From NCBI GenBank assembly GCA_963781585.1, contig CAWAGQ010000006.1:256001-320000 (forward strand): DNA of 64,000 nt, written 5' to 3'. Under the pieces are notes generated by a model. That model ran no database searches. It had not been told where the DNA came from and saw only the letters and a program-made list of their open reading frames with translations. Made by a program: the position numbers and the translations under genes. Shown piece by piece: positions 2,466 to 62,781 of the stretch. Numbering within the stretch: position 1 is the first letter of the stretch; every line of letters begins with the position of its first letter. The stretch is from an uncultured Gemmatimonadaceae bacterium (GTDB lineage: Bacteria > Gemmatimonadota > Gemmatimonadetes > Gemmatimonadales > Gemmatimonadaceae).

Positions 2466-3773
2466 CTACTGGAGCCCGGGCGTGATCCGCAGCCGCACCA
2501 CTCCTGGCAGATCCTCTTCATCCCGGGTGATCGCCCAGAGAAGGTCGCCGTCTGCTTCGACGAGCGTGGTGCGCGGCGGGAGCATCACGCGTCCCAGGAA
2601 GCGGCCGTTGTCGGAAAAGACCTCCCACACGCCCGAGGATCGGTAGTGCCGGAGCGGCGGACCGTTCGGGCGGGAGGGAGGGAGCTGGTCGTCGGGGATG
2701 CGCTCCGACGGCGTCGCCGCCAGCGCCCAGATCCGGCCGTCCCGGGCGATGAACAGATTCGACATTGGAGCCTTGACTTCGGGGAGCGCGGGCCCCTGCC
2801 AGGTCCACGAGGGATTGGTGCGACGCATGACGGAGTAGATCCGCGCCTCTTCGTCCTTGCGGTCCTCCTCGGCCACCGGAATGCGCGGGTAGTCACGCTT
2901 GATCACCACCGGCCTGCCCTGCGTTCGCGCCAGGACGATCTCGTATTTCCCGCCGTGCGCGGCCACGAAGTACCCGTCCGGGTGCCATGCCCAATGGAAG
3001 TTCGGCGCGTACTGTGCCCCCGTTCCCGTCGATGCGCGTCCGTCGGGACTGGTCGAGACGTACGACGAGCGGGGAACATCGATCTCCGGAGGCAGGAGCG
3101 AGTCGCCTAACGGGATCGCCTCCGATGCCCGAATCGGGGCAGTGGTGGATTCGTCCGTCCGGAGTTTGACCAGCCCCAGGCGGCCGATCACTTCGCCCGC
3201 GCGGCGCATCCTGATCGGGCGCCGGAGGAAGAGAGCGCCGGAGCGGTCCGTCACCAGGCCGTGAGTGGTGCCGAAACCGGCCGGCGTGCGCCAGCTGGTG
3301 CGAAAATCGCCGCTCGCCGCAAACGACGAGACGCGCGCATTCTGCGGGTCCCAGATGGCGAGGCCCGTGTCGCTCGTCGCGACCATCCCGCCGTCGCCGT
3401 TGAATTCCCCCGGCCCTCCGCCTTTTCGTCCAATCGTCTTCAGCAGTTTGCCATCGGCCGCAAACAGAAAGAGCCGATTGGTCGGCGTATCGTAGACCCA
3501 CATCCTTCCCGCGCGATCCACGATGAAGTCGTAGACTTGCGTGAAGAGTAAGGTGTCGTCGACCCCCGGGGCGATCCGCAACTCCTCGGTCACGTGACGC
3601 ACGGCGCCGGCCGGAACGTCCCCCGCCACGTGGGCAATGATGGAATCACCGGTGGTGTCGAAGACGGTCACCAGGCCGGAGGGATCTGCGCCGCCCTTGG
3701 CGTCGGTGCCGGCGGAACACGCGCCAGCGAGCACGCACGCGGAAACGACTGCCAGCCGTAGCATCGATGGCAC
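2466..3773 (-). CDS. Lipoprotein with 6-bladed/NHL-like beta-propeller
   Basis: Lipobox LAGAC; 'VDRAGRMWVYD...TIGRKGGGPGEF' NHL-like repeats; C-terminal 'WEVFSDNGRFLGRV' typical of this family. Confidence 0.8.
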   Translation of the reverse strand: MPSMLRLAVVSACVLAGACSAGTDAKGGADPSGLVTVFDTTGDSIIAHVAGDVPAGAVRHVTEELRIAPGVDDTLLFTQVYDFIVDRAGRMWVYDTPTNRLFLFAADGKLLKTIGRKGGGPGEFNGDGGMVATSDTGLAIWDPQNARVSSFAASGDFRTSWRTPAGFGTTHGLVTDRSGALFLRRPIRMRRAGEVIGRLGLVKLRTDESTTAPIRASEAIPLGDSLLPPEIDVPRSSYVSTSPDGRASTGTGAQYAPNFHWAWHPDGYFVAAHGGKYEIVLARTQGRPVVIKRDYPRIPVAEEDRKDEEARIYSVMRRTNPSWTWQGPALPEVKAPMSNLFIARDGRIWALAATPSERIPDDQLPPSRPNGPPLRHYRSSGVWEVFSDNGRFLGRVMLPPRTTLVEADGDLLWAITRDEEDLPGVVRLRITPGLQ

Positions 3774-3791
3774 CGTGGTTCTCTCCCGGAG

Positions 3792-3886
3792 AATTGGGGT
3801 CAGACTCGAATTTCTGGGAAATTCGAGTCTGACCCCATTTTCAAAGGAAATTCGAGTCTGACCCCATTTTCGCGGACCCCATTTTC
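3792..3886. repeat. REP-like element: perfect 20-bp inverted repeat plus extra direct copies
   Basis: TGGGGTCAGACTCGAATTTC (3795-3814), TGG loop, GAAATTCGAGTCTGACCCCA (3818-3837); third copy at 3847-3866; partial copy at 3875-3886. Confidence 0.9.
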
Positions 3887-3890
3887 GCGC

Positions 3891-4187
3891 CTACCGCGTC
3901 GTTCCCGCCAGCTCTGTCAGATCGGTGAAGGTGGGACCTGCGTCGCACCGCGGATAGAGCACCTCGACGAACGCCTTCGTGTACGCCGATCCGCGATGTC
4001 GCTCTTCCGACGCGCTGTCGGGAAACTCCATGAGGTGCACGAAGGAGACGCCGTTTGGTGCACGGAAGGTTCTGTATTCGCTGTCCGGCTCGTGCTCCGC
4101 GACCGCGCTGACGAACTCGGCGATTGCCGCCTCCACCGTCGGCACTTCCGCTTTGCGCACCCGGTAGCGCACGAGCTTCACGATCAT
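3891..4187 (-). CDS. Antibiotic biosynthesis monooxygenase (ABM)-like dimeric alpha/beta barrel protein
   Basis: 98 aa MIVKLVRYRVRK...HEPDSEYRTF...FVHLMEFPDSASEERHRGSAYTKAF; real start is the ATG at 4187 inside the longer track ORF. Confidence 0.75.
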   Translation of the reverse strand: MIVKLVRYRVRKAEVPTVEAAIAEFVSAVAEHEPDSEYRTFRAPNGVSFVHLMEFPDSASEERHRGSAYTKAFVEVLYPRCDAGPTFTDLTELAGTTR

Positions 4188-4401
4188 GGGATGGCTCCGA
4201 TTGGGCCGGCCTCGCAGACTACTGCGTCCGGTCGCCCGGCGCCACTTCTTCTGGTGAGCCAGCGCACTGCCGGACTGTGATGAACGACACCTGATGGGCC
4301 GGCGGGACGCCTCGCGCGGCACAACCCGCCGGGCCTCGCGCGCCCGAAGCCAGCAGTTTCCGGAGTGGTGACAAATACTGTGGACAAACGTCCTCAGTAT
4401 T

Positions 4402-6249
4402 GTGAGCACGTCTCTGCACTTGTCGGAAATCACGTACTCGGGACGCGAGACGACCCGCGAGCACGCCGTGCTGAGCGGGACGTTCGCGGCATCCATGGAG
4501 CGGCTTGTCCGCATCGCCGCGAGCACGCTCTCGGTGCCCTCCACGCTCCTGGCATTGCTGGGGAGCGATCGGCGCTGCTTTGCCGCCGGGCGCTACTGGC
4601 ACGACTGGTACTCGCACGACACCGGCGCGTTGTTGCGTTCGGGCCTGCTGCAGCGGACGGTCGAGCAGGGTGGGACGCTGGCGGTGCGCGACGCCCGCAT
4701 CGCCGAGGGCGACCTGGTACTTCGTTCCGCCGCGCGCGAGCTCGACATCGTCAGCGTCGCCACGGTGACCCTGGCGCAGGCTGACGGGACGATGCTCGGG
4801 TTGCTCTGCGCCTTCGACGACAAACCCCGCGACTGGGTTCCGCGTGAGATCGCTCTGCTGGGTGAGTTCGCGCAGATGGCGTCGACCGAGCTGCATCTGC
4901 GCCGGGTCCTCACCGAGCGTGACGCGCGAGAGCAGCAACTGCAGCACGATTCGATGCACGATCCCCTGACCCGCCTCCCGAACCGCACGTTCTTCATGAA
5001 GCGGCTCGCCGACGCGACGAACCGGGCGCGGCGTGGCGATGACGGCATTTTCGCCGTGTTGTTCCTCGATCTCGATGACTTCAAGCTGGTGAACGATTCG
5101 ATGGGTCACCACGTGGGCGATCAGGTGCTGATCACGGTGGCGCGGCGGCTGGAGGAGTGCGTGCGGGGAGGTGACATCGTCGCCCGGCTGGGCGGCGACG
5201 AGTTCGCGATTCTGCTCGAGCGCGTGACCGACGTGCGTGACAGCGCGATGGTGGCGGATCGCGTGCAGCAGTCGCTGAACCAGCCCATGAACATCGGCGG
5301 CTATGAGCACGTGACCACCGCGAGTGTGGGTGTTGCCCTCAGTACGTCGGCTGCCGATCAGCCGGAGTACCTGCTGCGCAGCGCCGACATGGCGATGTAC
5401 CGGGCGAAGAACACCGGCCGGGCGCGCTTCGAGATGTTCGACCGGGCCATGCACGCCGAGGCGCTGACCCGACTCCAGCTCGAGACCGATCTCCGGCACG
5501 CAATCGAACGGGACGAGTTCTTCCTCCACTTTCAGCCGATCATCTCGCTCAAGGACGGCGGGATTACGGGGATCGAGGCGCTCGTTCGCTGGCGCCATCA
5601 CGACCGCGGTATCGTCTCTCCGGGCGTGTTCGTGCCGGTGGCCGAGGACACCGGGCTCATCGTGCCGCTGGGCCGTTGGGTCCTGCGTGAGGCCTGCCGG
5701 CAGGCGCGCGCTTGGCAGGAGCGCTACGAGGACGAAACACCGCTGACGGTGTCGGTGAATCTCTCGGTGCGCGAGTTCGCGCAGCCCGATCTCGTTCCCC
5801 AGGTGGCGGCGATCCTGAAGGAGACAGGGATGCCGGCCAACCGCCTGCAGCTCGAAATCACCGAGAGCGCCATCATCGGGCAGCAGCATCCGGCCATCTC
5901 GACTATTCAGGAGCTGCGTGCCCTTGGCCTGGCGATCCACCTGGACGACTTCGGCACGGGCTACTCGGCCCTCAGCTACCTGCACCGTCTGCCGCTCGAC
6001 GCGGTGAAGGTGGATCGCGCGTTCACGAGTTCGATCGATACGGAAGAGCGACCGCTGCACGTGGTTCGGGCGATCATCTCACTCGCCCACGCCATCGGGC
6101 TGGAAGTGATCGCGGAAGGCGTCGCGACCCCGCATCAGCTCGCGCTCCTGCGGTCGATGGAATGCGATCGGGGCCAGGGGTTCCTCTTCGCCCGCCCGGG
6201 ATCGCCGACGGACATGGAAGCTCTGCTTCGGAGCAAGCCGCGCTGGTAG
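4402..6249 (+). CDS. GAF-GGDEF-EAL diguanylate cyclase/phosphodiesterase
   Basis: GAF (LGLLCAFDDKPRDW), HDPLTRLPNR, DLDDFKLVND, ARLGGDEF, IEALVRW, LEITES, LDDFGTGYS, EGV. Start uncertain (4402 GTG or 4495 ATG). Confidence 0.95.
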   Translation: MSTSLHLSEITYSGRETTREHAVLSGTFAASMERLVRIAASTLSVPSTLLALLGSDRRCFAAGRYWHDWYSHDTGALLRSGLLQRTVEQGGTLAVRDARIAEGDLVLRSAARELDIVSVATVTLAQADGTMLGLLCAFDDKPRDWVPREIALLGEFAQMASTELHLRRVLTERDAREQQLQHDSMHDPLTRLPNRTFFMKRLADATNRARRGDDGIFAVLFLDLDDFKLVNDSMGHHVGDQVLITVARRLEECVRGGDIVARLGGDEFAILLERVTDVRDSAMVADRVQQSLNQPMNIGGYEHVTTASVGVALSTSAADQPEYLLRSADMAMYRAKNTGRARFEMFDRAMHAEALTRLQLETDLRHAIERDEFFLHFQPIISLKDGGITGIEALVRWRHHDRGIVSPGVFVPVAEDTGLIVPLGRWVLREACRQARAWQERYEDETPLTVSVNLSVREFAQPDLVPQVAAILKETGMPANRLQLEITESAIIGQQHPAISTIQELRALGLAIHLDDFGTGYSALSYLHRLPLDAVKVDRAFTSSIDTEERPLHVVRAIISLAHAIGLEVIAEGVATPHQLALLRSMECDRGQGFLFARPGSPTDMEALLRSKPRW

Positions 6250-6376
6250 GGCAACCGGGTGTCACCCGTGGCCTTAACTACCAGGTCGCGCACGTCGTCT
6301 CAAAGCGGCTCGGGGCCTTCTCTCGCTCTCATCCCTCCAGGGGACGGCCAGCGGATGCGGGGAACGGCGCGTACTG

Positions 6377-6467
6377 ACGGCAGCGATCAGCTGTCCGCTA
6401 TCAGCGGTCAGGAATGAGCGGACAGACGGCGGCTGTCCGCTATCAGCGGGGAGCCGTCGGCGGTCAG
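6377..6467. repeat. Degenerate 7-bp tandem array (consensus cNNNCAG)
   Basis: cgatcag ctgtccg ctatcag cggtcag gaatgag cggacag acggcgg ctgtccg ctatcag cggggag ccgtcgg cggtcag. Confidence 0.75.
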
Positions 6468-6477
6468 ACAGGAATGC

Positions 6478-8178
6478 ATGACCAAACGTGACGAACGGCG
6501 AGGAGCAACCGACGTACCCGCACCGCCCGTAGGGCGGCGCGAGTTTCTGCATTCGGCGGCGGCGCTCAGTGCCGCTTTCGCGGTGGGGTCGCGCTTTTCG
6601 CCAGTCTCCGGTCGCGCTTCCTCGATCCTCACCGGTCCTGGCCGACGACTTCCCGAAAGAAGCGCCGCGGAGCTCGGCTTGATCGAGATCACCATCGACC
6701 AGCTGCAGGAAGGGATGCGGTCGGGTCGCTTCACGGCCCGGTCGGTGACCGAGGCGTATCTCGGACGGATCGCGGACCTCGACCGCGCCGGTCCCAAGCT
6801 GCGGGCGGTGATCGAAACGAATCCCGACGCGCTCAGGATCGCCGATCAGATGGACGCGGAGCGAAAGGCGCGCGGGCCGCGGGGGCCCCTGCACGGGGTG
6901 CCGGTCCTGATCAAGGACGCGATGGATACGGCCGACCACATGCGCTCAACGGCCGGGTCGCTGGCGCTCGCCAACTCGTTCGCCCCTCGCGACGCCTTCA
7001 TCGTGCAGCGACTGCGGGCGGCGGGCGCGGTGATCCTGGGCAAGACCAATTTGAGCGAGTGGTCGAACTTCCGGTCCACGCATTCCGCGGCCGGTTGGAG
7101 CGCGCGAGGCGGCCTGACGAGAAATCCCTACGTCCTCGATCGCAGCGCCTGTGGGTCGAGCTCGGGAAGCGGGGCCGCGATTGCGGCCAACCTGGGCGCG
7201 ATCGGGATCGGGACCGAGACTGACGGCTCCATTGTCTGTCCGGCAAGCGCGAACGGGCTGGTTGCGGTCAAGCCGACGGTGGGTCTGTGGAGCCGGACCG
7301 GCCTTATTCCCGTGTCGTACTCGCAGGATACCGCGGGTCCGATGTGTCGGACAGTGCGGGACGCGGCGATCCTGCTCGGCGCGCTGGCCGGTGTGGATCC
7401 GGCCGACGCAGCGACATCGGGCGCCGCCGCACACGCGCAGACGGACTTCACGGCCACGCTCGATCGTGATGGTCTGCACGGGGTGAGACTGGGCCTGTTG
7501 CGCCAGAGCCTTCCTGACGAGTCGACGCTGGTGCACGTGATGGATCAGAGCATCGCGGCGTTGAGGGCCGCCGGCGCGGTGGTGATCGATCCGATCGACG
7601 CAGGCGCTGTGGAAGACATCGACCTGCCGGAACTCCAGGTGCTGCTGTACGAGTTCAAGGCGAGCATCAAGGAATACCTGGCGGCGCGCGGGCCCGGTGA
7701 ACGAAACAAGAGCCTGGCCGACCTGATCCGGTTCAACGTGGATCACCGAGATGTCGAGATGAAGTACTTCGGACAGGAGTGGTTCGAGATGGCGGAGCAG
7801 ACGACGGGGCTGTCGTCATCGGAGTACCTGACCGCCCTCGCGGACTGTCGCCGCCTGTCGCGTGCCGAGGGGCTCGACCGGATCCTGCAGAGGCACCAGG
7901 TCGATGCGATCGTGAGCCTCACCAGTGGTCCGGCATGGAGCTCGGACCTTGTGGATGGCGACCACAACACCATTGGGAGCTCCAGCCTGGCGGCGGTGTC
8001 GGGATACCCGTCGGTGACCGTGCCCGCCGGGTTCGTCTACGGGTTGCCGGTGGGGGTGTCGTTCATTGGCGGCGCGTGGAGCGAACAGAACCTCCTGCGC
8101 TACGCCTACGCCTTCGAGCGGGCGACCAAGGTCCGTCAGACGCCGCGGTTCCTGCCCACGATCAACCTGGACGGTTGA
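6478..8178 (+). CDS. Amidase (amidase-signature family) with Tat signal peptide
   Basis: GRREFL twin-arginine leader; GPLHGVPVLIKD, GKTNLSEW, CGSSSGS, GTETDGSIVCP. Confidence 0.93.
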   Translation: MTKRDERRGATDVPAPPVGRREFLHSAAALSAAFAVGSRFSPVSGRASSILTGPGRRLPERSAAELGLIEITIDQLQEGMRSGRFTARSVTEAYLGRIADLDRAGPKLRAVIETNPDALRIADQMDAERKARGPRGPLHGVPVLIKDAMDTADHMRSTAGSLALANSFAPRDAFIVQRLRAAGAVILGKTNLSEWSNFRSTHSAAGWSARGGLTRNPYVLDRSACGSSSGSGAAIAANLGAIGIGTETDGSIVCPASANGLVAVKPTVGLWSRTGLIPVSYSQDTAGPMCRTVRDAAILLGALAGVDPADAATSGAAAHAQTDFTATLDRDGLHGVRLGLLRQSLPDESTLVHVMDQSIAALRAAGAVVIDPIDAGAVEDIDLPELQVLLYEFKASIKEYLAARGPGERNKSLADLIRFNVDHRDVEMKYFGQEWFEMAEQTTGLSSSEYLTALADCRRLSRAEGLDRILQRHQVDAIVSLTSGPAWSSDLVDGDHNTIGSSSLAAVSGYPSVTVPAGFVYGLPVGVSFIGGAWSEQNLLRYAYAFERATKVRQTPRFLPTINLDG

Positions 8179-8203
8179 CGGCCGGGCGGCCGGAGTTCCC
8201 GGC

Positions 8204-8257
8204 AATTGGGGTCAGACTCGAATTTCCGGTAATTGGGATCAGACTCGAATTTCCGGT
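8204..8257. repeat. Two tandem 27-bp copies of the same REP-like unit as at 3792-3886
   Basis: AATTGGGGTCAGACTCGAATTTCCGGT and AATTGGGATCAGACTCGAATTTCCGGT. Confidence 0.9.
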
Positions 8258-8426
8258 AGCAGGCGTCACACTCCAGTGACCGGGAGCCGCTGGACGCGCT
8301 GACCACGGATTTCGAACCCCTGAAGCGGTCCCGTCGCAGGTCCTGCGAGGTGCGGCAAGTCACGAGGCGTCATCGGGTTCCGAAGCGTGACGGTGGCCGG
8401 GTTGCGCCAGTCACTTACCAGAACCA

Positions 8427-10301
8427 ATGACCTCTCGCGAAGACGCACTGACCGACCCGTCGCCGCTCCTCGCCTACGGCGAGAAGCCGCGCATCTCTGC
8501 GTGGTCCAACCCCTACCTCGTGTCCCGGTCGGCGGCGGGGATCGCGGTCATGGTTGGCATCCTGGTGCTCATCGGGTGGGTGGCGGGCGTGCCCGAGCTG
8601 CGGGCACTTGGGCCGGACCCGCGCGACGTCGTGAACCCCATGACGGCGGTGTGCTTCGTCGCCCTGGGCTCGTCGATGTGGCTGCTGTCGATCGAGGAGT
8701 ACCCGCGCGGCCGTGAGATCGCGCGTGCGCTGGCGCTGTTCGTGATGGTGGTGGGTGTGGCGCGCATGTACGGCCTGCTGTTCGGCGACTCGCCAGGCGT
8801 GGATCAGCTCCTGTTCGGCGACACGATGACCGCGTTGCACAATGGCGACCTGAGTCGCATGCCGCCTAACGCGGCGTTTGATCTCGCGCTCCTGGGCACC
8901 GGCCTCCTGTTTCAGGTCAGGTCATCGCGCGCGGGCAGCGTGCTGGCGCAATTGTTCGCGGTGATCGTGCTGTTCACGGCGCAGGCCGCGCTGATCGCGC
9001 ACGCCTACCGGAGCGGGTGGTTCGAAGGCATCGGCAGCTTCAACCGGATGGCGCTGCCCACCGCGATCGCATTCGGCGTGATGTCGGTCGGGGTGATGAC
9101 GTTGAGCAGCGAGGATGGGCTCATCGCCATCATTCTCAGCGACGGGCCGGGCGGATCGACGGCCCGGACGCTGCTGCCGGCGGGCTTCCTGGTGCCCGCG
9201 ATTCTCGGCTGGATGGTGATCTTCGGCCGGCGGGGCCAGGTGATCGACGCCGACCTGGCGGACACCCTCTTCGTGCTGGCGACGATTCTCGTGTTCGTCG
9301 GCATGGTGGCGTGGATCGCGACCCAATTGCACGAGAGTCACCTGGATCGGACGAAGACCGAGGAAGCACTGCGCGAGAGCGAAGTGCGCTTCCGCCTGAT
9401 CGCCGAGAACGGCAGCGACGTGGTGAGTCTGCACGACACGTCGGGCCGGGCGATCTACCTCAGTCCCTCCTGCGAGCGGGTGCTGGGATTCCTGCCGGAA
9501 GAACTGATGCGCATGGCGCCGTTCGCGATCGTGCATCCCGATGACACTGACAAGCTGCAGCGCCATTTCTCGCAGCTCACCCGTGCCGAGCCGGTGACGT
9601 CCATCCAGTGCCGGATGCTGCACAAGACGGGGAAGCACATCTGGCTGGACATGATGTGGCGCGCCGTGTTCAACCGGGAAGGGAAGGTGGTGCGTCTCCA
9701 GGCGTCATCGCGCGACATCACCGAGCGCAAGGAATACGAGAAGCGGCTCGAGGAGACACAGCGGAAGCTGAAGGCGCGGACGGACCAGCTGGAGGAGGCG
9801 AAGATCCAGCTCGAGGCGCTGGCGGCGCTGGACGGCCTGACCGGTCTCAAGAACCGCCGCGCCTTCCAGGACCGGCTGCAGGAGGAGATCTCGCGGTCGC
9901 GGCGTCACGGGCATCCGCTGTCGCTCATCCTGCTCGACATCGACCATTTCAAGTCGTACAACGACACCTTCGGCCATCCCAAGGGCGACGAGGTGCTGCG
10001 CGCGGTCGGCAAACTGCTGTCGCGCACGATGCGCGACACGGATTTCGCGGCGCGATACGGCGGTGAGGAGTTTGCGATCATCCTGCCGAACACCGACCGC
10101 GAGGGTGCGCAGCAGGTGGCCGAGCGGTTGCGGTCGGCGATCGCGGCGGCGGAGTGGGACGACCGCGCGATCACCGCGAGCGTGGGAACGGCATCGTTCT
10201 CGAGCGATGTGAACAACGTGGATGCGCTGTTGGAGCACGCGGACCGGGCCCTCTACCGGTCGAAGGAAGCGGGGCGGAATCGGGTAACGGTGGCGGCATA
10301 G
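8427..10301 (+). CDS. Multi-TM membrane sensor PAS-GGDEF diguanylate cyclase
   Basis: About 8 hydrophobic segments, PAS (IVHPDD...SRDITERK), DGLTGLKNRR, RxxD I-site (RDTD) before RYGGEEF. Confidence 0.95.
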   Translation: MTSREDALTDPSPLLAYGEKPRISAWSNPYLVSRSAAGIAVMVGILVLIGWVAGVPELRALGPDPRDVVNPMTAVCFVALGSSMWLLSIEEYPRGREIARALALFVMVVGVARMYGLLFGDSPGVDQLLFGDTMTALHNGDLSRMPPNAAFDLALLGTGLLFQVRSSRAGSVLAQLFAVIVLFTAQAALIAHAYRSGWFEGIGSFNRMALPTAIAFGVMSVGVMTLSSEDGLIAIILSDGPGGSTARTLLPAGFLVPAILGWMVIFGRRGQVIDADLADTLFVLATILVFVGMVAWIATQLHESHLDRTKTEEALRESEVRFRLIAENGSDVVSLHDTSGRAIYLSPSCERVLGFLPEELMRMAPFAIVHPDDTDKLQRHFSQLTRAEPVTSIQCRMLHKTGKHIWLDMMWRAVFNREGKVVRLQASSRDITERKEYEKRLEETQRKLKARTDQLEEAKIQLEALAALDGLTGLKNRRAFQDRLQEEISRSRRHGHPLSLILLDIDHFKSYNDTFGHPKGDEVLRAVGKLLSRTMRDTDFAARYGGEEFAIILPNTDREGAQQVAERLRSAIAAAEWDDRAITASVGTASFSSDVNNVDALLEHADRALYRSKEAGRNRVTVAA

Positions 10302-10403
10302 GGGCGGGTAGGAGTCCAGAGTCCAGAGGTCGAAGGCGCTGACGCGTGTGCCTGCGCATCATTCGCACCTCCGACCTCCGGCGCTATCGGCTGTGGGCTT
10401 CTG

Positions 10404-52450: not shown

Positions 52451-52470
52451 CAGTGGTGGCGTCCATTGCG

Positions 52471-52749: not shown

Positions 52750-52822
52750 GGTCGGTGGGGCCGAAGGCGCGATCGTTAGGCACCCAGCCGCGCATGGCCG
52801 TCCGCAGCACGTGCGGCGCCAC

Positions 52823-53991: not shown

Positions 53992-56250
53992 CTACGACAG
54001 GTTCATCTTCTTCAGCAGCGCGATGAACCGCGGATGCGAGCGCAGCGTGATAAAGAGAAACGACCCCTTGATGCCGTACACGGCGCCCGCTTGCTCCTCG
54101 AACGCACGCTCCAGCAGGTCGATGGCCCGCTCCCGGTCCCCCAGACCGGTGTGCACGTAGGCCATGTGGTACGGTGACACATATCTCTGGGCGGCCATGG
54201 ACTCCAGTCGCTGGAGCACGTCGCGGCTCTTCGCCGTCTGGCCCGCCATCCCGTACGCCTGCCCCAGCTGCGCAAGAAAGAGCGTGTTATCCGGCGAGAG
54301 CATCGCGGCGCGTTCGAGCTCGGCGATGCCGCGCTCGTGCATCCCCTGGAGAAACAAGGCCCACGCGAGCGTGGCCCTCGCCCGCGCGTTCTGCGGGTCG
54401 AGGTGGACGACCTGTTCGATATTCGCCACCGCGTCTTCGTACCGACCGGCACGGATCAGCGTCGTGGCGAGATCCACCCGATGCGCCAGGGGGTCCAGCT
54501 GCTGGGCTCTCCGGAGCACGTCCAGCGCCTCGTCGAAACGTCCGGTGGCATTGAGCAGCCGGCCATAGTAGTCGTGGGCATCGGCGCTCCCGGGATTCAG
54601 GTCGAGGGCACGCCTGAATTCCCCCTCGGCGCCGCTCCAGTCGAAATCGCCGACCACGTGGAGATAGCCGAGCGCGGCGTGGGCTTCGCCCAGTTCGTCA
54701 TCCAGGGAGAGCGCCGCCGTCAACGCGGTACGGGAGGCTGCGTAGCTTTCCGCGGGGTCCGCCGCGCCGCCCTCGGCGAGCTCGTTATGCGCGATGGCGA
54801 TGCTGGTGTATGCGAGGGCGTAGTCCGGATCGAGCGCGATGGCCTGCCGGAAGTACTCGATGCTCTTGCGCAGACCCTCGTGGGTGTACCGGATCAGCCA
54901 GTGCCGCCCCTGCAGGTACAGCTGATAGGCCGGGAGATTGGTGGTGGGCTCACGGCCGATGCGGTTTCGTTCGTCCGCGGACAGCCCGGCGCGCAGGGAT
55001 CGCGCGATGTGCAGTGCCACGTCGGTCTGGATCGCGAAGATATCCGTAAGCTCCCGATCATAGGTCTCGGACCAGATGTGCTGCTCGGTTCCCGGGTCGA
55101 TCAGGTGCGCGACGATTCGCACGCGGGCGCCGGCTCGCCGCACGCTGCCGTCGAGCACCGTGCCGACGCCGAGCCGGGCGGCAATCTCGCGAAGGCCGTG
55201 TTCCCGCTTCTTGAACGGCATGACCGATGTCCGCGAGATCACCTCGATCGCGCGGACCTTCGAGAGGTGCGTGATCACGTCCTCGGTAATGCCGTCGGCG
55301 AAGTACTCGTTCTCGGGGTCGGCGCTCAGATTCAGGAACGGCAGGACGGCCACCGAGTGGGCACGCACCCGACCAGCGTCCGGCGCCGACAGTGCCTCGG
55401 CGAAAGAAATGGTGGACGCGTATCGATCCGCCGGCACGCGGGCCAGCGCCCTGGTGATGGCCCGCTCGACGGCCGCGGGCACCTCGGGGCGGAGGCGGCG
55501 CACCGACGGCACGGGGTCCGTCAGGCGCTTCGTCATTACCGCGAGTGTCGTGGGCCCGGTGAACGGAGGCTCGCCCGCCAGCATCTCGTACAGCACGCAG
55601 GCAAGCGCGTACACGTCGCTGCGCGCGTCGACCGCCGGGTCACCGGCGGCCTGCTCGGGACTCATGTAGGCCGCGGTGCCGACCACCATGCCGGCGCCGG
55701 TCAGGTTCTGGTCGGTCGTCGACAGCGCCCGCGCGATGCCGAAGTCGGCGACCATCGCTTCCCCTTCGTGGATCAGGATGTTCTCCGGCTTCACATCGCG
55801 ATGCACGAGCTGCCGGGCGTGCGCATGATCGAGCGCCGACGCGACCTGCCTGGTGATGCGAAGCGCCTCGTCGACCGGCAGCTGGGTCTCACGTTCGAGT
55901 CGGGCGCGCAGGGACTCGCCACGCACGTACGGCATGACGTAGAAGAGCAGGGGCCCCTCTCCCGCGCCCTTCGTCGTCCCCACAAGGCTCACGTCGATTT
56001 CGCCCGAATCGTACAGGGGGAGGATGTGCGGGTGATTGAGGCTGGCCGCGATCTGAATTTCGCGGTGAAAGCGCTCCGCCCCCAGGGCGGACGCGATCTC
56101 GGGCTTGAGGACTTTCAGCGCGACCTGACGGTTGTGCTTCAGGTCATGCGCCAGGTACACCGTCGCCATTCCGCCGCTGGCGACCTCGCGCTCGATCGCG
56201 TAGCGCTCGGCGATCGCGCGCGTGAAGGGATGCGATGGGGCGGACGACAT
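53992..56250 (-). CDS. Ser/Thr protein kinase with TolB-like (FlgO-like) and TPR domains
   Basis: GGMATVYLA, VALK, HRDVKPEN, DFG, GTAAYMSPEQ; SVAVLPFLNLS..EYFADGITED; TPRs. Confidence 0.95.
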   Translation of the reverse strand: MSSAPSHPFTRAIAERYAIEREVASGGMATVYLAHDLKHNRQVALKVLKPEIASALGAERFHREIQIAASLNHPHILPLYDSGEIDVSLVGTTKGAGEGPLLFYVMPYVRGESLRARLERETQLPVDEALRITRQVASALDHAHARQLVHRDVKPENILIHEGEAMVADFGIARALSTTDQNLTGAGMVVGTAAYMSPEQAAGDPAVDARSDVYALACVLYEMLAGEPPFTGPTTLAVMTKRLTDPVPSVRRLRPEVPAAVERAITRALARVPADRYASTISFAEALSAPDAGRVRAHSVAVLPFLNLSADPENEYFADGITEDVITHLSKVRAIEVISRTSVMPFKKREHGLREIAARLGVGTVLDGSVRRAGARVRIVAHLIDPGTEQHIWSETYDRELTDIFAIQTDVALHIARSLRAGLSADERNRIGREPTTNLPAYQLYLQGRHWLIRYTHEGLRKSIEYFRQAIALDPDYALAYTSIAIAHNELAEGGAADPAESYAASRTALTAALSLDDELGEAHAALGYLHVVGDFDWSGAEGEFRRALDLNPGSADAHDYYGRLLNATGRFDEALDVLRRAQQLDPLAHRVDLATTLIRAGRYEDAVANIEQVVHLDPQNARARATLAWALFLQGMHERGIAELERAAMLSPDNTLFLAQLGQAYGMAGQTAKSRDVLQRLESMAAQRYVSPYHMAYVHTGLGDRERAIDLLERAFEEQAGAVYGIKGSFLFITLRSHPRFIALLKKMNLS

Positions 56251-56378
56251 TGTGCGAATAGTGTTCGACGACCCTGGGGGTCGGGAAGAGCTGAACGAGG
56301 CGAACACGACGTCGTGCGGAAGCGGCTTGTCCGTGACGCAGGGCCCGGTCTTCCATCCCGCGACCTGCTGACCGCCGC

Positions 56379-59057
56379 TCAGTAACCGTGTCGGGTGTCG
56401 AAGTTCTTGACCATCCACACGTCCGTCTGCCGGCTGTCGACGATGCCAACCGCGCGGCGGCCATCGTGTGTGATGTTGAAGTCGCTGAACGACAGCGGAA
56501 GTTCCTCGAACTCCGTCTTGCCGGTGGCCGGATCCACGTAGCCCAGGCGCATCCTGGTCCCGGCCACGAAACCCGGCTGGTCGCTGTACACCAGGCGCCC
56601 GTCGGTCTGCGCCTGCAGCAGACCGGACCAGGTGGTGGGCAGTTTCAAGTCGCCCAGCGGCACGATGCCGCCCCCGATCGGATCGAACCGGAGCAGCCGC
56701 TCGGTCAGGGAGCCGGCGCGCAGGGCCCGGGCCAGCACGAAGACGTCGTCGTTGACGGGCGACGCCACCTCGACGTCGGGGAAGCCTAACGAGTCCGGCC
56801 AGGGGTGGGAGGCAATGAGGGCGCCATCCCTGCCGTATCGGTTGAAGACCGAAGCGACCGGATTGGAGGGCGCCGGAAGTTCGATCAGTCGCCCGCCATC
56901 CCGGAGCCCTGCGAGGTAGCCGAGCCTGGCCGGAAGGGGCTGCGGAGTGCCGCCGGCCGAGGGGAGGAGGGCGTTGTGCACCGAGTCGTGCTCGTCCTTG
57001 AATGAGACCTTCAGCACGCCGTCGATGTAGCGCGGATAGGTGGGGCCGGTGAGGCTCGTCAGCGGCGGTCCCACGGAGTGGGGATCACCTCCCTCGAACG
57101 GCGCCACCCACACCCGGGCACTCGCGCCGGACGGCTCGAACACCCCGTAGGCGATCTCCTTGCCGTCATCGGAGACGTCCGCTCCCGTCAGCCCCGCGGT
57201 CGAGGTGAGAATCTGTCTCGTCTTCCAGGGGCCGCGCGGTCCGGCGCGCTCCAGCGTCCACAGCTCGCGCGTGACCGGGCCGCCCGAATAGACGACGGTC
57301 TTCCCGTCGGCGGAGACGTCGAACCCCGCGCCCGGTGGTGCGCGCAGCGCGGTGAGCACCGTATCCCCTTCGCCGACGAAGCGCCCTTTCGACGGGTCCA
57401 CGTCGCGACGCACGAGGAACGCGCGGATCCCGGGTCCCTCGGCCAGGAAATACAGCCCGTCCGACTTCGGCGTCCACCGTACCTGGCCTGTATATCGGAA
57501 GGTCGCGATGCGCGGTTCGCTCAGATGGTCCACGACTTTCAGGTCGCGCGAGAGAAGTGCGATCCGGGCACCGGCTGGTGCTACCTCGGTCACCACCGCG
57601 AGCCATCGTCCGTCAGGCGACCAGCGCGCGTCCACCGCCATCATGCCCGGCAGCTTGAGGCTGTCCACGACCTCGCCGGTAGACCGCTTGAGCACCGAGA
57701 CGCGCGCGAACGAATCACTCGAGATGGCGATATCGGGCGCGATGACGCGCGCGCTGTCGGCCGTGACCGCGTAGGTCCAGAAGCCACCGATCCGTTCGAC
57801 CGCGCCCCCGAGTCGCGGCACCGAGAACAGCGAGGTGACGGAGCCCTGACCGGCCGTGTAGTAGATGCGGGTGCCGTCGGTGCTCCACCGCGACTGAATC
57901 ACCGCATCGAGGTTCGACGCCACGGTGGTGGGCCGGCTGCCGCTGGCGAGATCCTGCACGATCAGGCTCTGGGTGCACTTCTTCGGCTCGCCCGCGCACT
58001 GCTCGGTGACGTAGGCCAGGAAGTTGCCGTCGGGCGAAAGCGATGGCGCCCAGCTTCCGCCGGTCGATGTCAGTTGCGTCGTCTGGGCCGGTGGTGGCGG
58101 TGGCGGCGGCGTGCGCCCTCGCAACAGCAGGAAGAGGACGATCCCAAGGACGACCGCGATGCCACCGCCGACGGCGAGGATGGGGCGTCGATCGCGGCCC
58201 GATGCGCCGGGGGGAGTGGCGGTGAACGCCGCTGTGACCGCCGCGGCGAATTCCGCGGCACTCCCGAACCGGTCGGCCGGAACCTTGGCGAGCGCCTTCG
58301 CCACCGCGGTGTCCACGCCCTCCGGCACGGTGTCGCGCACGGTGCGAACCCGCGTGGGCTTCTCCGTCAGCAGCTTCGCGATCACCGCCTGCGCCGTGGC
58401 GCCGGAATAGGGCGCCTCGCCGGTGAGCATCTCGTAGAGCACCGCCCCCAGGGAGTAGACGTCCGAGCGCGCGTCGGGCTGGCGCTCCCCGGTGGCCTGC
58501 TCGGGGCTCATGTACTGCGGCGTGCCTAACGAGAGTCCCGTTTCGGTGAGCCGGTTGCCGCCCGCTTCCTTCACCGCCAGGGCGATTCCGAAGTCGGCCA
58601 GCATCGCCTCACCCTCGAACAGCAGGATGTTCTCGGGCTTGATGTCGCGATGGATGACGCCCTGACGATGGGCGTACTCCAGCGCGCCCGCGACCTGCTG
58701 GGTGATCCGGAGGGCTTCGTCGAGCCCCAGCTGCTTCTCCCTCTGCAGTCGCACGCGCAGGGATTCGCCGCGGATGTACGGCAGGACATACCACAGCAGC
58801 CCCTCAGTGGAACCGGAGTCGATCAGGGTGAGGATGTGCGGATGGTCCAGCCGCGCCGTGATGCGGATCTCGTTCAGGAATCGCTCACCACCAAGCACCG
58901 CGCTCAGGTCCGGGCGGAGGACCTTGAGCGCCACCTCGCGGTCGTGGCGCACATCGCGCGCGAGATACACGGTCGCCATGCCGCCGGCCCCGAGCTCGCG
59001 CTCGATGCGGTATCGGCCGGCGAGAGCGGCGGTGAGCTGTTCGAGCGAGTTGGACAT
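56379..59057 (-). CDS. Ser/Thr protein kinase with TM segment and PD40/WD40 beta-propeller
   Basis: LGAGGMATVYLA, HRDIKPEN, DFG, GTPQYMSPEQ; TM; LSPDG and WSPDG repeats. Confidence 0.95.
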   Translation of the reverse strand: MSNSLEQLTAALAGRYRIERELGAGGMATVYLARDVRHDREVALKVLRPDLSAVLGGERFLNEIRITARLDHPHILTLIDSGSTEGLLWYVLPYIRGESLRVRLQREKQLGLDEALRITQQVAGALEYAHRQGVIHRDIKPENILLFEGEAMLADFGIALAVKEAGGNRLTETGLSLGTPQYMSPEQATGERQPDARSDVYSLGAVLYEMLTGEAPYSGATAQAVIAKLLTEKPTRVRTVRDTVPEGVDTAVAKALAKVPADRFGSAAEFAAAVTAAFTATPPGASGRDRRPILAVGGGIAVVLGIVLFLLLRGRTPPPPPPPAQTTQLTSTGGSWAPSLSPDGNFLAYVTEQCAGEPKKCTQSLIVQDLASGSRPTTVASNLDAVIQSRWSTDGTRIYYTAGQGSVTSLFSVPRLGGAVERIGGFWTYAVTADSARVIAPDIAISSDSFARVSVLKRSTGEVVDSLKLPGMMAVDARWSPDGRWLAVVTEVAPAGARIALLSRDLKVVDHLSEPRIATFRYTGQVRWTPKSDGLYFLAEGPGIRAFLVRRDVDPSKGRFVGEGDTVLTALRAPPGAGFDVSADGKTVVYSGGPVTRELWTLERAGPRGPWKTRQILTSTAGLTGADVSDDGKEIAYGVFEPSGASARVWVAPFEGGDPHSVGPPLTSLTGPTYPRYIDGVLKVSFKDEHDSVHNALLPSAGGTPQPLPARLGYLAGLRDGGRLIELPAPSNPVASVFNRYGRDGALIASHPWPDSLGFPDVEVASPVNDDVFVLARALRAGSLTERLLRFDPIGGGIVPLGDLKLPTTWSGLLQAQTDGRLVYSDQPGFVAGTRMRLGYVDPATGKTEFEELPLSFSDFNITHDGRRAVGIVDSRQTDVWMVKNFDTRHGY

Positions 59058-59309
59058 TGGCTGGGCGGGCGGTTGCCGGTGGGGTCGCGCGGGCTGCGGA
59101 CCCGTAGACCGGCCCCGTGAATCTACGACGAATCGACGTACCGGGCACGTGCGTGAGGACGCTCTGGGGACCGTGCCCGCAGGCGTGCCGGGACCGGGAT
59201 GCGCCGAGGATTCCCGCGAACCGGGCGGCCGCTCCATTATGGTAGGTGCAGCGCGCCACATTGCATGCAGCGGTCTCAGGCCCGCGAACCTACTCCATCG
59301 CCGACTCTC

Positions 59310-59825
59310 ATGGTTTCACGATTCGATGGTCGCTACGCCAGGGAGTTCCTCGCTGGCTGGGGCGACATGGACTTCAACGGCCATCTGGCGAATACCGCCT
59401 ATCTCAACCTCGCCGCCGACGCGCGCCTGGCGTTCTTCGCTGAACACGGCTTTCCGCCGACCGAGTTCCGCCGGCTCGGACTCGGACCGGTCATTCGCAA
59501 GGAGGAGCTCGAATACTTCCGCGAGATCGGTCTCCACGACGCGGTCACCGTCACGTACGCGGTCCTCGGGATGAGTCCTGACGGCGCGCGATTCGTGGTC
59601 GAGAACGAGATCTGGTCCGCAGCCGGCGAGCGCGCCGCCACGGTGAAGTCGACCGGCGGCTGGCTCGACCTGCGCGCGCGGAAGCTCGTTGCTCCCCCCG
59701 CGGCCTTACTCGCGGCCTTTCAGCTGGTGCCGCGCGCGCCGGGCTTTGTCGAGTTGCCTTCTCGCAACGGTGGCACGGAGTCAGCGCCAGCGGGCCCCGC
59801 GCGGCGCGACGTCGGCCCGGTCTGA
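59310..59825 (+). CDS. Acyl-CoA thioesterase (4HBT hot-dog fold)
   Basis: WGDMDFNGHLANTAYL, GPVIRKEELEYFREI, GGWLDLRARKLVAPP. Confidence 0.92.
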   Translation: MVSRFDGRYAREFLAGWGDMDFNGHLANTAYLNLAADARLAFFAEHGFPPTEFRRLGLGPVIRKEELEYFREIGLHDAVTVTYAVLGMSPDGARFVVENEIWSAAGERAATVKSTGGWLDLRARKLVAPPAALLAAFQLVPRAPGFVELPSRNGGTESAPAGPARRDVGPV

Positions 59826-59849
59826 CGCAAACCCTCTCTGAGCGAGCGA

Positions 59850-62261
59850 ATGGCTGCGCACACTTTCACCCGGGCCCTTCGGATGGCGCGACGGCGCCCC
59901 GTCCTGTCGCTCACCGTCGTCGCCATCATCGCGATCGGCATCGGCTCCACCAGCGCGGTGTTCAGCGTCGTGGACGCGTCGCTGCTGCGCCCGCCTCCCT
60001 ATAGGGACGCCCCGCACCTGGTCGAACTCTGGAATCGCGATGCCGACGGGAGCGCCTGGCCGCGACTCGAGCCCGAGCGCGCGCAGGCGTGGCTGAACAA
60101 GACCGACCTGCTCACACGGGTCGAACGCTACACGGACCGCACGATGCTGCTGGCAGGCGTCGCCGATCCCGAGGACCTCCGCGTGACCACGGTGTCAGCC
60201 GGCCTGTTCGACATGCTCGGCGTGAGCATGACGCGCGGACGCGGCTTTGCGCCTGACGAGTACGCCACCGGGGCGGCACCGGTCGTGGTGGTGAGCGACG
60301 CGTTCTGGAGACGCCATTTCGGTGGGGAGCCGATGGCGAAGGCCGAGACCATTCTGCTCGACGATCAACGATACGACGTGATCGGCGTGACCCCGGCGTG
60401 GTTTCGCTTCCCGCACGGAAACGGGTCGGTGTGGCGGCCGCTGCGCCCGGAGGAATCCGGAGCCGACGCTCCGCTCAATTACGTGGCGCGCCTCGCGGAT
60501 GACGTGACCCGTGCGAACGCGACCGCGCGTTTCGACGTCTATGGAAAGCAGCTCGCGCAGGCGGTCCCCCGGAAGGATGGGTGGCAGGTGTATCCGGCAT
60601 TTCTGATCGAGCCCGATATCAGCCAGGAACTGCGCACCGCCATCTGGGTGCTGCTGGGCGCGGTGGCGTGCGTCATGCTGATGGTGTGCCTCAACGCGAC
60701 GAATCTCCTGCTGGTGCAGGCCACCACGCGCCAGCGCGAGTTCGGCATCCAGCAAGCGCTCGGTGCGACGCCCGGACGGCTCGCGCGACAGGTTTTCGTC
60801 GAGGGCGCACTGTACGCCGGAGTTGCAGCCGTCCTGGGTGTTGCGGTCGCGCGGTGGTCGCTCGAGCTGATGCTCACCCTGGCCCCGCGCGAGCTGGCAC
60901 GATTCGGCAACGGCGCGCCTGCGATCGACGCGCGAGCGCTGGCCTTCGCGGTCGGCCTGGCGTCGATCACGGCGCTGGTCTCGACCATGGGGCCGGCGCT
61001 GCACGCCGCGCGCGCGCGGGGCCACCTGGTGACGGCGGGCGAGGACCGGACGCAGACCGGCGGCCGTCGGCTCCAGCATCTGCGCGCAGGACTCATCGTC
61101 GCGGAGTTGTCGCTGTCGCTCGTCCTCCTTGCCGGGGCTGGACTGTTCATTCAGTCGCTGCGACACCTGCTGCGCGTCGATCCCGGGTTCGACGTCGAGC
61201 ACGTGGTGGCGGCGCAGTTCGGCGTGCCGTCGATTCGCTATGCCACCGCCGACGCCCGCGCGGGCCTGCTCGATCGCCTGGCGGAATCGCTGCGGGGCGT
61301 GCCCGGCGTCGCAGGGGTGTCGTTCTCGAGCGGCCTTCCGCCGAGGGCTGACATCACGTTTGGATCGAGGCTCGAGGCCGAGGGCGCCGTAGCGCCGGCG
61401 CGTACCGGTGACATCGTGCTTCCCTTCGCCGAGGTCGATACGGCCTTCTTCTCGACATTGGGCGTGCGGTTGCTGCGAGGGAGGGGATTCGACGAGGCCG
61501 ATGTGTCGGCAGATGCGTCGCGATCGGTCGTGGTCGGCCGCGCGTTCGCGGACCTGCTGTGGCCTGGAGAGGATCCGATCGGCCGTCGCTATCGCATTTC
61601 GGCCGACGGCGCATGGCGTACGGTGGTCGGCGTCGTGGCGAACGTGAAGCTGATGGGCCCCGATGACCGCAGCTATCCGTACGCGGTGTTCTATCCACGG
61701 CCGCGACTTGGCCGCGCCACCCGCACCGTCGCGCTGGCGGTGCGCACCGCGGGTGACCCGGGCGCGAGCATTTCCGCGATGCGGCGGGCCATTCGCGAGG
61801 TCGACAGCGAGATCCCGATCTCGGAGATGGCTTCGGGCACCGAGCGATTCGCCACGTCGATGGATCGCACGCGATTCGTGCTGACGCTGCTCACGGTGTT
61901 CGCGAGCATCGCGCTCGCGCTCGCGGTGGCCGGCACGTATGGCGTCGTGTCCTATGCCGTTGCCCAGCGCACGCGTGAAATCGGGATCCGGATCGCGCTC
62001 GGCGCGAGCGAGCCGTCGATCCAGCGCGCGGTGCTCGCGCAGGGGTCGGCGCTTGCGCTGACCGGGGTGGCGGCGGGACTGCTTATCTTTGCCGGGGCGA
62101 GTCGGTTCATCGCTCCGCAGCTGTTCGGCATCGCCCCACGGGACCCGGGGGTGCTGTGGGTCGCGTCGCTGTTTGTGATACTCACCACGCTGGCGGGCGT
62201 GTTGGTGCCGGCGCGCCGGGCCAGTCGCGTGAGTCCCGTGATCGCGATGCTGCCGGAGTGA
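59850..62261 (+). CDS. ADOP-type duplicated ABC permease (MacB-PCD/FtsX x2)
   Basis: AIGIGSTSAVFSVVD..LLRPPPY, CLNATNLLL...RQREFGI..ALGA, AQRTREIGIRIALGA, VPARRASRVSP. Confidence 0.93.
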   Translation: MAAHTFTRALRMARRRPVLSLTVVAIIAIGIGSTSAVFSVVDASLLRPPPYRDAPHLVELWNRDADGSAWPRLEPERAQAWLNKTDLLTRVERYTDRTMLLAGVADPEDLRVTTVSAGLFDMLGVSMTRGRGFAPDEYATGAAPVVVVSDAFWRRHFGGEPMAKAETILLDDQRYDVIGVTPAWFRFPHGNGSVWRPLRPEESGADAPLNYVARLADDVTRANATARFDVYGKQLAQAVPRKDGWQVYPAFLIEPDISQELRTAIWVLLGAVACVMLMVCLNATNLLLVQATTRQREFGIQQALGATPGRLARQVFVEGALYAGVAAVLGVAVARWSLELMLTLAPRELARFGNGAPAIDARALAFAVGLASITALVSTMGPALHAARARGHLVTAGEDRTQTGGRRLQHLRAGLIVAELSLSLVLLAGAGLFIQSLRHLLRVDPGFDVEHVVAAQFGVPSIRYATADARAGLLDRLAESLRGVPGVAGVSFSSGLPPRADITFGSRLEAEGAVAPARTGDIVLPFAEVDTAFFSTLGVRLLRGRGFDEADVSADASRSVVVGRAFADLLWPGEDPIGRRYRISADGAWRTVVGVVANVKLMGPDDRSYPYAVFYPRPRLGRATRTVALAVRTAGDPGASISAMRRAIREVDSEIPISEMASGTERFATSMDRTRFVLTLLTVFASIALALAVAGTYGVVSYAVAQRTREIGIRIALGASEPSIQRAVLAQGSALALTGVAAGLLIFAGASRFIAPQLFGIAPRDPGVLWVASLFVILTTLAGVLVPARRASRVSPVIAMLPE

Positions 62262-62781
62262 CGGCAGGCGTTAGGCAGCGGGCACGATTGCGACCACGAT
62301 TCCCAAGCACAGCACCTGCAGCGCGGTTGGTGTGGGCTTCGCTTCGGCGGCCGTGTCGTTGCTTGCGGGATGGAGCATCTACCGCGACGCCGGTAATGCG
62401 TTTCGTCTCTATGCGATTGATCGGCCAGCTGAGTCGGCTACCTGAAGCGGGCCGCAGTCACGGGATCGGATGGATCGCTACACGGTCCATGATTCGGCGG
62501 CAACAAAACGCTCGCGCGGACCGCGGCCCCGGCGCTCAGGGAACCGGTCACAGCCGTGTGAGAGCCGGGCAGAGGACCAGATATCGAGCTCCCATGGACG
62601 GCGGAATCGCGCCCCCGCCGTTTCGCACCTATCATGTTCGTGGCATCTGGCGTCCCGAAGGTGATTCCGGCGCGCGTTCCGCGATCCGACCTGAAGGCGT
62701 TATACGTTAGGCACCCGCGATGCCGCACACCCCAGGCGTACCTGAGGGTTCGGTACCGGGTCCGGCTCCGAGGAGGGTAGC

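Follow-up and report, generated by a model that had tools for sequence, protein, structure and literature searches.

What kind of signal is a short word that recurs throughout a stretch of bacterial DNA, inside genes and between them, and what might read it? The question is raised by a window of 64,000 nucleotides from an uncultured Gemmatimonadaceae bacterium (genome G000, contig C6:256001-320000), in which a sequence-only reading had pointed to the heptamer CCTAACG/CGTTAGG. By its RecA, 92% identical to that of a named record, G000 groups with Gemmatimonadaceae. Words iterated across whole genomes are known from few groups (Neisseriaceae, Pasteurellaceae and cyanobacteria), and whether they build up through benefit or through drive is still argued. 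The data presented here support selection or drive acting at the DNA level on an octamer, CGTTAGGC, that contains this heptamer.

An exact recount found all 23 copies where the sequence-only reading had placed them, 18 CCTAACG on the plus strand and 5 CGTTAGG, and the single AGTTAGG at 53828 is also present. Dinucleotide shuffles of the window gave a mean of 2.48 and a maximum of 7 copies, and 23 was reached in 0 of 100. The motif is real, but the heptamer is not its unit. The unit is CGTTAGGC, which is not palindromic, its reverse complement being GCCTAACG, and which accounts for 19 of the 23 window sites, with CGTTAGGT at 3 and CGTTAGGA at 1. Genome-wide, CGTTAGG occurs 1,706 times, including 1,442 CGTTAGGC and 183 CGTTAGGT, and no consensus beyond the octamer is found in the flanks of these sites. 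Genes show no enrichment of AGTTAGGC (4 against 11).

The codon-preserving comparison proposed earlier was made with our own dicodon gene calls (4,592 genes, 84% coding). Genes contain 1,134 copies of CGTTAGGC, compared to 38.2 +/- 6.0 in 20 genome-wide synonymous shuffles (a 30-fold enrichment) and 34-62 in 10 within-gene synonymous shuffles, and CGTTAGGC tops the ranking of all octamers. All four usable frames are enriched (observed/expected 762/9.2, 273/21.0, 70/3.3 and 29/4.6), and placement along genes is near-uniform. The share of TTA codons found in the word, also proposed as a check, is 881 of 1,306 in the context CG-TTA-GG, and the word holds 52 of 353 TAA and 83 of 1,383 TAG stops as well. 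Weaker variants are enriched in genes to a lesser degree (CGTTAGGT 12-fold, TGTTAGGC 3.7, CGTCAGGC 3.0, CGTTATGC 2.0). CGTTAGAC, by contrast with these variants, is depleted in genes (3 against 18). Use of the word drops from 0.30 to 0.07 in genes with low third-position GC (GC3), and gaps of 15-27 kb between sites exist, some of them near the origin. Both synonymous nulls, the enrichment of sense and antisense frames and the conservation between strains described below bear out the earlier proposal that selection or targeted mutation acts on the DNA itself. CGTCAGGC has 1,519 copies genome-wide, about 78 of them from one clustered regularly interspaced short palindromic repeat (CRISPR). This array, at G000 C7:396071-401900 (L513:11071-16900), has at least 78 repeats, its 36-base repeat includes CGTCAGGC, and it adjoins cas3 and a cas4-cas1 fusion.

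Copies of the word exclude one another. Neighbour gaps below 300 bp occur at 0.28 of expectation, compared to 0.82-1.63 for control octamers (150 random draws from 244 comparable octamers). Use of x-Leu-Gly and Pro-Asn-x positions rises with distance to the nearest site, from 5/280 under 100 bp through 14/284, 25/288, 32/280 and 42/301 and on to 94/509, 150/678 and 252/940 (1-1.5 kb), followed by a plateau at about 0.25. When the second-strain contigs were removed, this ramp was fitted by an exponential with a 643 bp scale or by a linear rise to 829 bp, each about 102-103 log-likelihood units over a flat model. The ramp is the same in the four relative orientations (0.070-0.084 under 500 bp vs 0.255 at 1-3 kb). 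Near CGTTAGGC, the variants CGTCAGGC, CGTTAGGT, TGTTAGGC and CGTTATGC become scarcer too, with small counts for the last three, and seven control words showed no consistent thinning. This shared exclusion suggests that one process reads all the variants and that its benefit saturates within about 1 kb. Pairs closer than 300 bp number 40 among about 1,625 sites; inverted pairs of this spacing number 5 (+/-) and 12 (-/+) genome-wide, and one inverted pair, on C2, is terminator-like.

The assembly carries duplicated contigs from two strains (C5/C8, C2/C6 and C17/C11; 88-91% nucleotide identity, about 615 kb, two parS sites), which agrees with the 7% contamination given for it. Across 472 pairs of orthologues whose four-fold-site divergence is 26%, 194 of the 236 aligned positions retain CGTTAGGC, both sides counted. 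This retention ranks 1 of 2,008 octamers, for which the median is 0.50, and TTA is kept at 152 of 162 positions in the context of the word vs 48 of 96 elsewhere. The retention fits purifying selection and restoring drive equally. Four-fold-site divergence at 100-1,000 bp from sites is 0.99-1.03 of the gene mean, with no local fall, and transitions dip slightly (0.86-0.87) within 100 bp, inside the range of control words. The lower nearby substitution rate of a Dam/GATC-type mismatch-repair signal is not seen here.

Conservation across Gemmatimonadota, a further check named by the sequence-only reading, extends to some lineages but not to the phylum: 9 of 151 genomes have high counts, and the distribution of the word is patchy. 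These high genomes have 173-1,442 strand-balanced copies and fall in the family of G000 (6/32) and a second family (3/71), with 0/48 in the others; in the stretches fetched from them the sites are in-frame and dispersed. The T form and the C form number 1,442 and 1,519 in G000, the counts of CGTTAGGC and CGTCAGGC, compared to 191 and 2,387 in G050, and the C form is dominant in G050, G104 and G029. At G050 loci L038, L039 and L093, CGTGAGGC is over-represented as well (20 against 5.1 in 50 kb), so that the dialect of G050 may be wider. The patchy distribution requires at least 4 state changes on a tree of recA from 28 Gemmatimonadota genomes, which covers 28 of 30 loci and has weak deep support, and 7 on a methyltransferase tree of 48 genomes. 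Only 1 of 201 Acidobacteriota genomes is high, and in the family of that genome, placed in Thermoanaerobaculia by protein names, 10 of 81 are high (229-939 balanced copies); the word relaxes to NGTTAGGC in the Thermoanaerobaculia genomes G394 and G361. The entry record L166/G151 is titled Verrucomicrobiia, but its RecA shares 92% identity with that of an Acidobacteria record and it carries recA twice, so that its title or bin is doubtful. Among 251 Planctomycetota none is high (maximum 77 copies). Seven unpublished genomes (G057, G097, G179, G204, G307, G376 and G398) enter the denominators only, and none was counted high. In 80 viral loci, selected by a single copy, CGTTAGGC never exceeded 3 copies, a viral scan seeded with a G000 integrase returned nothing, and Terminase_6N had no match in G000. 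No alternative word stood out in five low genomes at about 90 kb each. A description of the word in these lineages was not found in the published literature (full text, mostly without subscription papers), and the accessible portions of the supplements of PMC8919816 and PMC4752239 held no match for it.

The explanation that we rank first, at somewhat short of an even chance, is that CGTTAGGC is a saturating tag that biases DNA uptake or recombination, similar to the DNA uptake sequence (DUS) of Neisseriaceae, which is read by ComP, or to highly iterated palindrome 1 (HIP1) of cyanobacteria. CGTTAGGC and, more weakly, CGTCAGGC, CGTTAGGT, TGTTAGGC and CGTTATGC would be read by a sequence-specific protein regardless of strand or replication direction; one copy would cover about 0.6-1 kb of flanking DNA, and a second copy nearby would gain little. 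The tag may bias which fragments enter or recombine into the chromosome, as is the case for DUS and the uptake signal sequence (USS) of Pasteurellaceae, and for HIP1 through methylation, and tagged alleles would then spread by synonymous substitution up to the point at which about one in four of the easy positions carries the tag. An orientation-free tag that saturates over 0.6-1 kb is the trace to be expected from biased uptake or recombination of short fragments. Uptake or recombination as the step involved, the fragment-length meaning of the ramp and the identity of the reader are all inferred. G000 has comEC, a comEA-type helix-hairpin-helix (HhH) gene adjoining pilB-/pilT-type ATPases, dprA and about ten prepilins. 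Because of these competence genes, and because the flat divergence near sites argues against a repair signal, an uptake or recombination tag is placed ahead of an intracellular methyl mark, a spreading chromosome protein and an integrase link, in that order.

Several observations weigh against an uptake or recombination tag. The ramp is shown in G000 only, and in the other high genomes samples of 65-96 sites gave P values of 0.05-0.73. The low genome G103 has comEC and HhH genes too. No word-specific receptor was found with one prepilin of about ten searched, at any strength: this FimT-like pilin (C7:29700) is missing or weak in 7 of 9 other high Gemmatimonadota and present in low genomes. Close or inverted pairs are nearly absent, unlike in DUS and USS; in Haemophilus influenzae, 23% of USS have another within 100 bp, according to the accessible text of PMC7811141. 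Also, a word common to two phyla is a poor self tag. An uptake function is put forward as a candidate drawn from sequence patterns, and we remain just on the doubtful side of it.

The comparison with known systems is similarly mixed. As in DUS and USS, the word is non-palindromic, has more than 1,000 copies, is genic, lies on both strands, is conserved and has no replichore polarity; competence machinery is present, dialects differ between lineages and use is low in low-GC3 genes. DUS and USS have 8-10 bases, are scarce in atypical DNA and form lineage dialects (PMC3630211 and PMC7811141, each in its accessible part). However, inverted terminator pairs and an extended flank consensus are lacking here, mutual exclusion is strong, and one word occurs in two phyla and is patchy within families. 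HIP1 (GCGATCGC; orphan methyltransferases DmtA and DmtC) is also an octamer iterated in genes, conserved beyond codons and non-randomly spaced, with a lineage-wide orphan methyltransferase as candidate partner, and it boosts transformation, an effect that depends on methylation (PMC13756078, accessible part). CGTTAGGC differs from it in being non-palindromic, in its candidate enzyme (below) and in its short-range exclusion, whereas the period of HIP1 is tens of kb in the available text of PMC5861425. The word works like DUS/USS or HIP1 without belonging to either; it fails one defining feature of each (the inverted pairs of DUS/USS, the palindrome of HIP1) and is therefore not filed as a member.

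The best candidate for a writer or reader of the word is a predicted gene pair at G000 C6:142082-147699 (L089:5082-10699), an orphan Eco57I-type adenine methyltransferase of 1,076 amino acids (C6:144469-147699) and an adjoining SNF2-type helicase of 800 amino acids. A copy lies on C2, and both co-binned strains carry the pair. The methyltransferase was matched in 57 of 67 Gemmatimonadota, including 9/9 high genomes, and in 0/8 from more distant families. An orthologue (35% identity, with the helicase) is found in 10/10 high and 16/20 other members of the Thermoanaerobaculia family. In the 201 Acidobacteriota, a sample drawn before the gene was tested there and with at most 3 candidates scored per genome, 5 had an orthologue (E < 1e-100), including the only high genome (Fisher P = 0.025, post hoc). 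Homologues also occur in Myxococcales and Bradymonadales. Whether or not it is linked to the word, such conservation is unusual for a pair of this type. The motifs DPACGSG and NPPW are conserved, and residues 1-159, the expected place of a nuclease, have no invariant residue. An alignment-based model of the enzyme (predicted local distance difference test score 92.7) has CamA, M.BseCI, BrxX and MmeI as nearest folds, with 11-14% identity to solved structures. MmeI-type sites are compatible with a target that ends in RAC. Profile matches were to Type IIG, DrmMI and PglX models for the enzyme and DrmD, DpdE and BrxH models for the helicase. The fold and model matches are thus similar to those of CamA-type enzymes, DISARM DrmMI/DrmD and BREX PglX/BrxH, but the pair in G000 is single-copy, order-wide and set among housekeeping neighbours rather than in a defence island. 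Other methylases were rejected: N6_N4_Mtase (PF01555) had no match in G000 and a C5 methylase was found in 3 of 5 high genomes. A C5 methylase-Vsr fusion adjoining an EcoRII-type endonuclease lies at G000 C7:476868-479892 (L095).

If the word is the putative target of this pair, its methyl mark could instead steer an intracellular choice of strand or self over about 1 kb, with new sites fixed by a repair ratchet as Elhai proposed for HIP1. Such a mark may overlap with the uptake or recombination tag, and we consider it unlikely, although it is next in rank. The pair is present in 19/19 high genomes tested (9 Gemmatimonadota and 10 Thermoanaerobaculia) and rare in the Acidobacteriota sample, the catalytic motifs, the lack of invariant residues where a nuclease is expected and the fold suit a methyltransferase, and the methyl-directed model of Elhai saturates near one site per 1,000 nt (PMC4390886, accessible part), a scale that matches the ramp. 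However, the pair is also present in 48/58 low Gemmatimonadota, as well as in most other Thermoanaerobaculia family members, and of 62 metagenome loci that carry a close homologue (18 distant loci having been set aside) only 7 were rich in the word, all Gemmatimonadaceae-like. High and low genomes are not told apart by any residue of the methyltransferase (two high genomes were dropped from this alignment as too short) or of the helicase, which is intact in both; five low genomes offered no alternative word in about 90 kb each, and the flat divergence near sites argues against a mismatch-repair strand signal. The two lineages may share many genes, which makes co-occurrence weak evidence. The methyltransferase may be necessary but does not suffice. 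Methylomes of these lineages were not found, though the supplements of bioRxiv 10.64898/2026.06.24.734251, accessible in part, could hold relevant ones. A chromosome-organising or DNA-protecting protein that binds the word, spreads or slides about 1 kb and is selected for even coverage would explain the orientation-free exclusion, the smooth ramp, the near-uniform genic placement and the conservation, and Xu et al. made the case that HIP1 plays a role of this kind (PMC5861425, as far as its text is available). We regard this as improbable, as the word is patchy with repeated state changes on both trees, gaps of 15-27 kb are tolerated even near the origin, and no candidate protein was found. 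The polar and translational alternatives are weaker still. The 18:5 skew that the sequence-only reading stressed is real in the window, but the gene-strand control indicates that it does not belong to the word as such: the minus strand carries 70% of window coding bases, which predicts a split of 57:43 (P = 0.028 for 18/23), and a skew this strong is seen in 4 of the 79 64-kb windows of the genome. A signal like Chi or the FtsK-orienting polar sequence (KOPS), acting on a helicase-nuclease or FtsK, had been offered for this skew, with the proviso that tracking of gene orientation rather than replichore would speak against it, and gene orientation is what the skew tracks on contigs C4, C5 and C8, oriented by dif (C4:569339) and parS (C5 and C8). 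Raw counts of CGTTAGGC there do favour a polar signal (338 leading, 230 lagging), but co-directional genes supply 72% of the coding bases there, and the word is placed most often as sense-strand Leu-Gly. Use per opportunity is 0.193 in co-directional vs 0.208 in head-on genes (P = 0.53; leading vs lagging, sense 227/1,174 vs 91/438 and antisense 67/256 vs 40/122), intergenic sites split 33 to 35, GGGNAGGG splits 242:99 on the same segments, and word density does not rise at dif. The likeness to Chi and KOPS is that of a non-palindromic over-represented octamer, and since polarity vanishes per opportunity this reading is not supported and keeps very little probability. The most polar octamer on these segments is GCTGGTGG, the E. 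coli Chi sequence (raw 381 leading vs 138 lagging, before gene-strand correction). A role of TTA as a rare regulatory codon, or a protein motif, would fit the concentration of TTA codons in the word, but antisense frames (CCT-AAC, CTA-ACG), stops and intergenic DNA are enriched too, the encoded tripeptides are at most 1.3-fold over expectation, and the exclusion does not stop where a gene ends (ratios 0.39-0.59 under 750 bp). Enrichment in antisense frames and between genes refutes an effect at translation, to which we give practically no credence.

An integron integrase that makes or uses the word, as secondary sites or scars, was considered because CGTTAGGC is the attC R' core. In cassette arrays from five low genomes, CGTTAGGC serves as R' box in 133 cases, CGTTAGAC in 18, CGTTAGGT in 4 and CGTCAGGC in 3, counted over the 20 most frequent matches; integron arrays with CGTTAGGC as R' box occur in low genomes whose counts are skewed; the word fits the consensus GTTRRRY (RYYYAAC on the other strand) given in the accessible part of PMC5027507; and both a full intI and small arrays are present in G000. 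However, full-length intI is found in 22 of 43 genomes tested, including only 3 of 9 high ones, so that abundance does not track intI; CGTTAGAC, frequent in attC, is depleted in genes, and there is no preference for the AGAC variant. The dispersed sites are synonymous placements in conserved genes and lack the partner arm, the L boxes and the R''-L''-L'-R' hairpin of attC (about 55-140 bp, after a cassette gene), with only 12 attC-arranged pairs under 300 bp, and IntI recognises folded single strands by structure (PMC5027507, same part). An integrase origin is thus very unlikely. Stand-alone integrase N-terminal domains were also tried, and none is common to 5 high genomes. By eye, the few true-attC-like sites of G000 are on C7 and C13 only. 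An integron with intI, an attI-like site and few cassettes lies at C7:170000-186829 and a second cassette cluster at C13:307783-335211, and these regions hold three copies of an element with a tyrosine recombinase and an IS91-type transposase. Large arrays with dozens of near-identical attC are found in low relatives (G046 C7:1-26600 and C5:48500-60800; G125 C3 and C4). The attC identity could also matter in another way, in that the methyltransferase-SNF2 pair or an uptake receptor may read the attC core in double-stranded DNA and spill the word chromosome-wide at cassette-length spacing, a proposal that we hold to be improbable, on a par with the chromosome protein. Its first role would perhaps have been the harvesting or marking of gene cassettes, with the bias then spreading in several lineages of two phyla. 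If true, this would join DNA uptake, methylation and integron cassette traffic in one system.

Whichever reading applies, one word has arisen several times in two soil-bacterial phyla, with high genomes found alongside low relatives and an action range of about 0.6-1 kb that is measurable in G000, so that models of drive versus selection become directly testable. The attC-core identity and a named candidate enzyme pair give concrete experimental handles on the reader of the word.

In the window, the codon contexts are those described by the sequence-only reading, with 10 sites as NCG-TTA-GGN (x-Leu-Gly) and 4 as CCT-AAC-GNN (Pro-Asn-x); the remainder comprise 1 Val-Arg, 1 TAA stop, 1 TAG stop and 6 intergenic sites. 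Its statements that the site at 49418 supplies the stop of the MutS-domain gene and that the motif occurs between genes also hold. The closely spaced pair at 28949..28982 is one of only 3 neighbour gaps below 50 bp in G000.

Table. Copies of the word and its variants in the window (window coordinates).
Word	Position	Strand	Context
CGTTAGGC	3105..3112	-	Pro-Leu(TTA)-Gly in gene 2466-3764(-)
CGTTAGGC	8864..8871	-	antisense Pro(CCT)-Asn-Ala, GGDEF/PAS gene 8427-10301(+)
CGTTAGGC	11669..11676	+	antisense Pro-Asn-Gly, M16 peptidase gene 10404-13196(-)
CGTTAGGT (variant)	16787..16794	-	Ser-Leu-Gly, PmbA/TldD gene 16142-17785(-)
CGTTAGGC	22389..22396	-	Ser-Leu-Gly, BatA-domain gene 21813-23204(-)
CGTTAGGC	22794..22801	-	Ser-Leu-Gly, BatA-domain gene 21813-23204(-)
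CGTTAGGT (variant)	24485..24492	-	Ser-Leu-Gly, MoxR-type AAA gene 24110-25153(-)
CGTTAGGC	26698..26705	-	antisense Pro-Asn-Glu, S9 peptidase gene 25490-27562(+)
CGTTAGGC (two)	28949-28956, 28975-28982	-	intergenic direct repeat, 26 bases apart
CGTTAGGC	31586..31593	-	TAG stop (CGT-TAG) of gene model 31588-32610(-)
CGTTAGGA (variant)	32766..32773	-	intergenic
CGTTAGGC	36950..36957	-	Thr-Leu-Gly, ABC transporter gene 36533-38290(-)
CGTTAGGC	39913..39920	+	antisense Pro-Asn-Gly, glycosyltransferase-like gene 39764-40846(-)
CGTTAGGT (variant)	42574..42581	-	Ala-Leu-Gly, gene 42502-45063(-)
CGTTAGGC	42760..42767	-	Ala-Leu-Gly, gene 42502-45063(-)
CGTTAGGC	49417..49424	-	complement is TAA stop of MutS-domain gene 48097-49422(+)
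CGTTAGGC	50572..50579	-	Val(GTT)-Arg(AGG), gene model 50510-51307(-)
CGTTAGGC	52774..52781	+	intergenic
CGTTAGGC	56784..56791	-	Ser-Leu-Gly, Ser/Thr kinase gene 56379-59057(-)
CGTTAGGC	58524..58531	-	kinase motif GLSLGTPQY, gene 56379-59057(-)
CGTTAGGC	62269..62276	+	intergenic, directly 3' of gene 59883-62261(+)
CGTTAGGC	62705..62712	+	intergenic
CGTCAGGC (sibling word)	1..64000	14 +, 13 -	27 window copies, absent from the sequence-only reading

Some neighbouring genes of the window deserve mention. An Eco57I/TaqI_C-type methyltransferase and an upstream open reading frame (ORF) without a Pfam match occupy 45474-48279(-). This methyltransferase (45474-47027) was rejected as a partner of the word, as it was found in only 3 of 9 high genomes with differing neighbours, and for the same reasons it looks like a mobile restriction-modification gene; the pair is likely a mobile type II restriction-modification system. 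Its homologues in G140 and G094 adjoin a different ORF, the one in G094 near an integrase remnant. The MutS-family gene that adjoins the pair encodes 441 amino acids with domains III and V only (Pfam MutS_III, MutS_V), and the ORF at 62782-63912(+) has a Gln_deamidase_2 (PF18626) domain.

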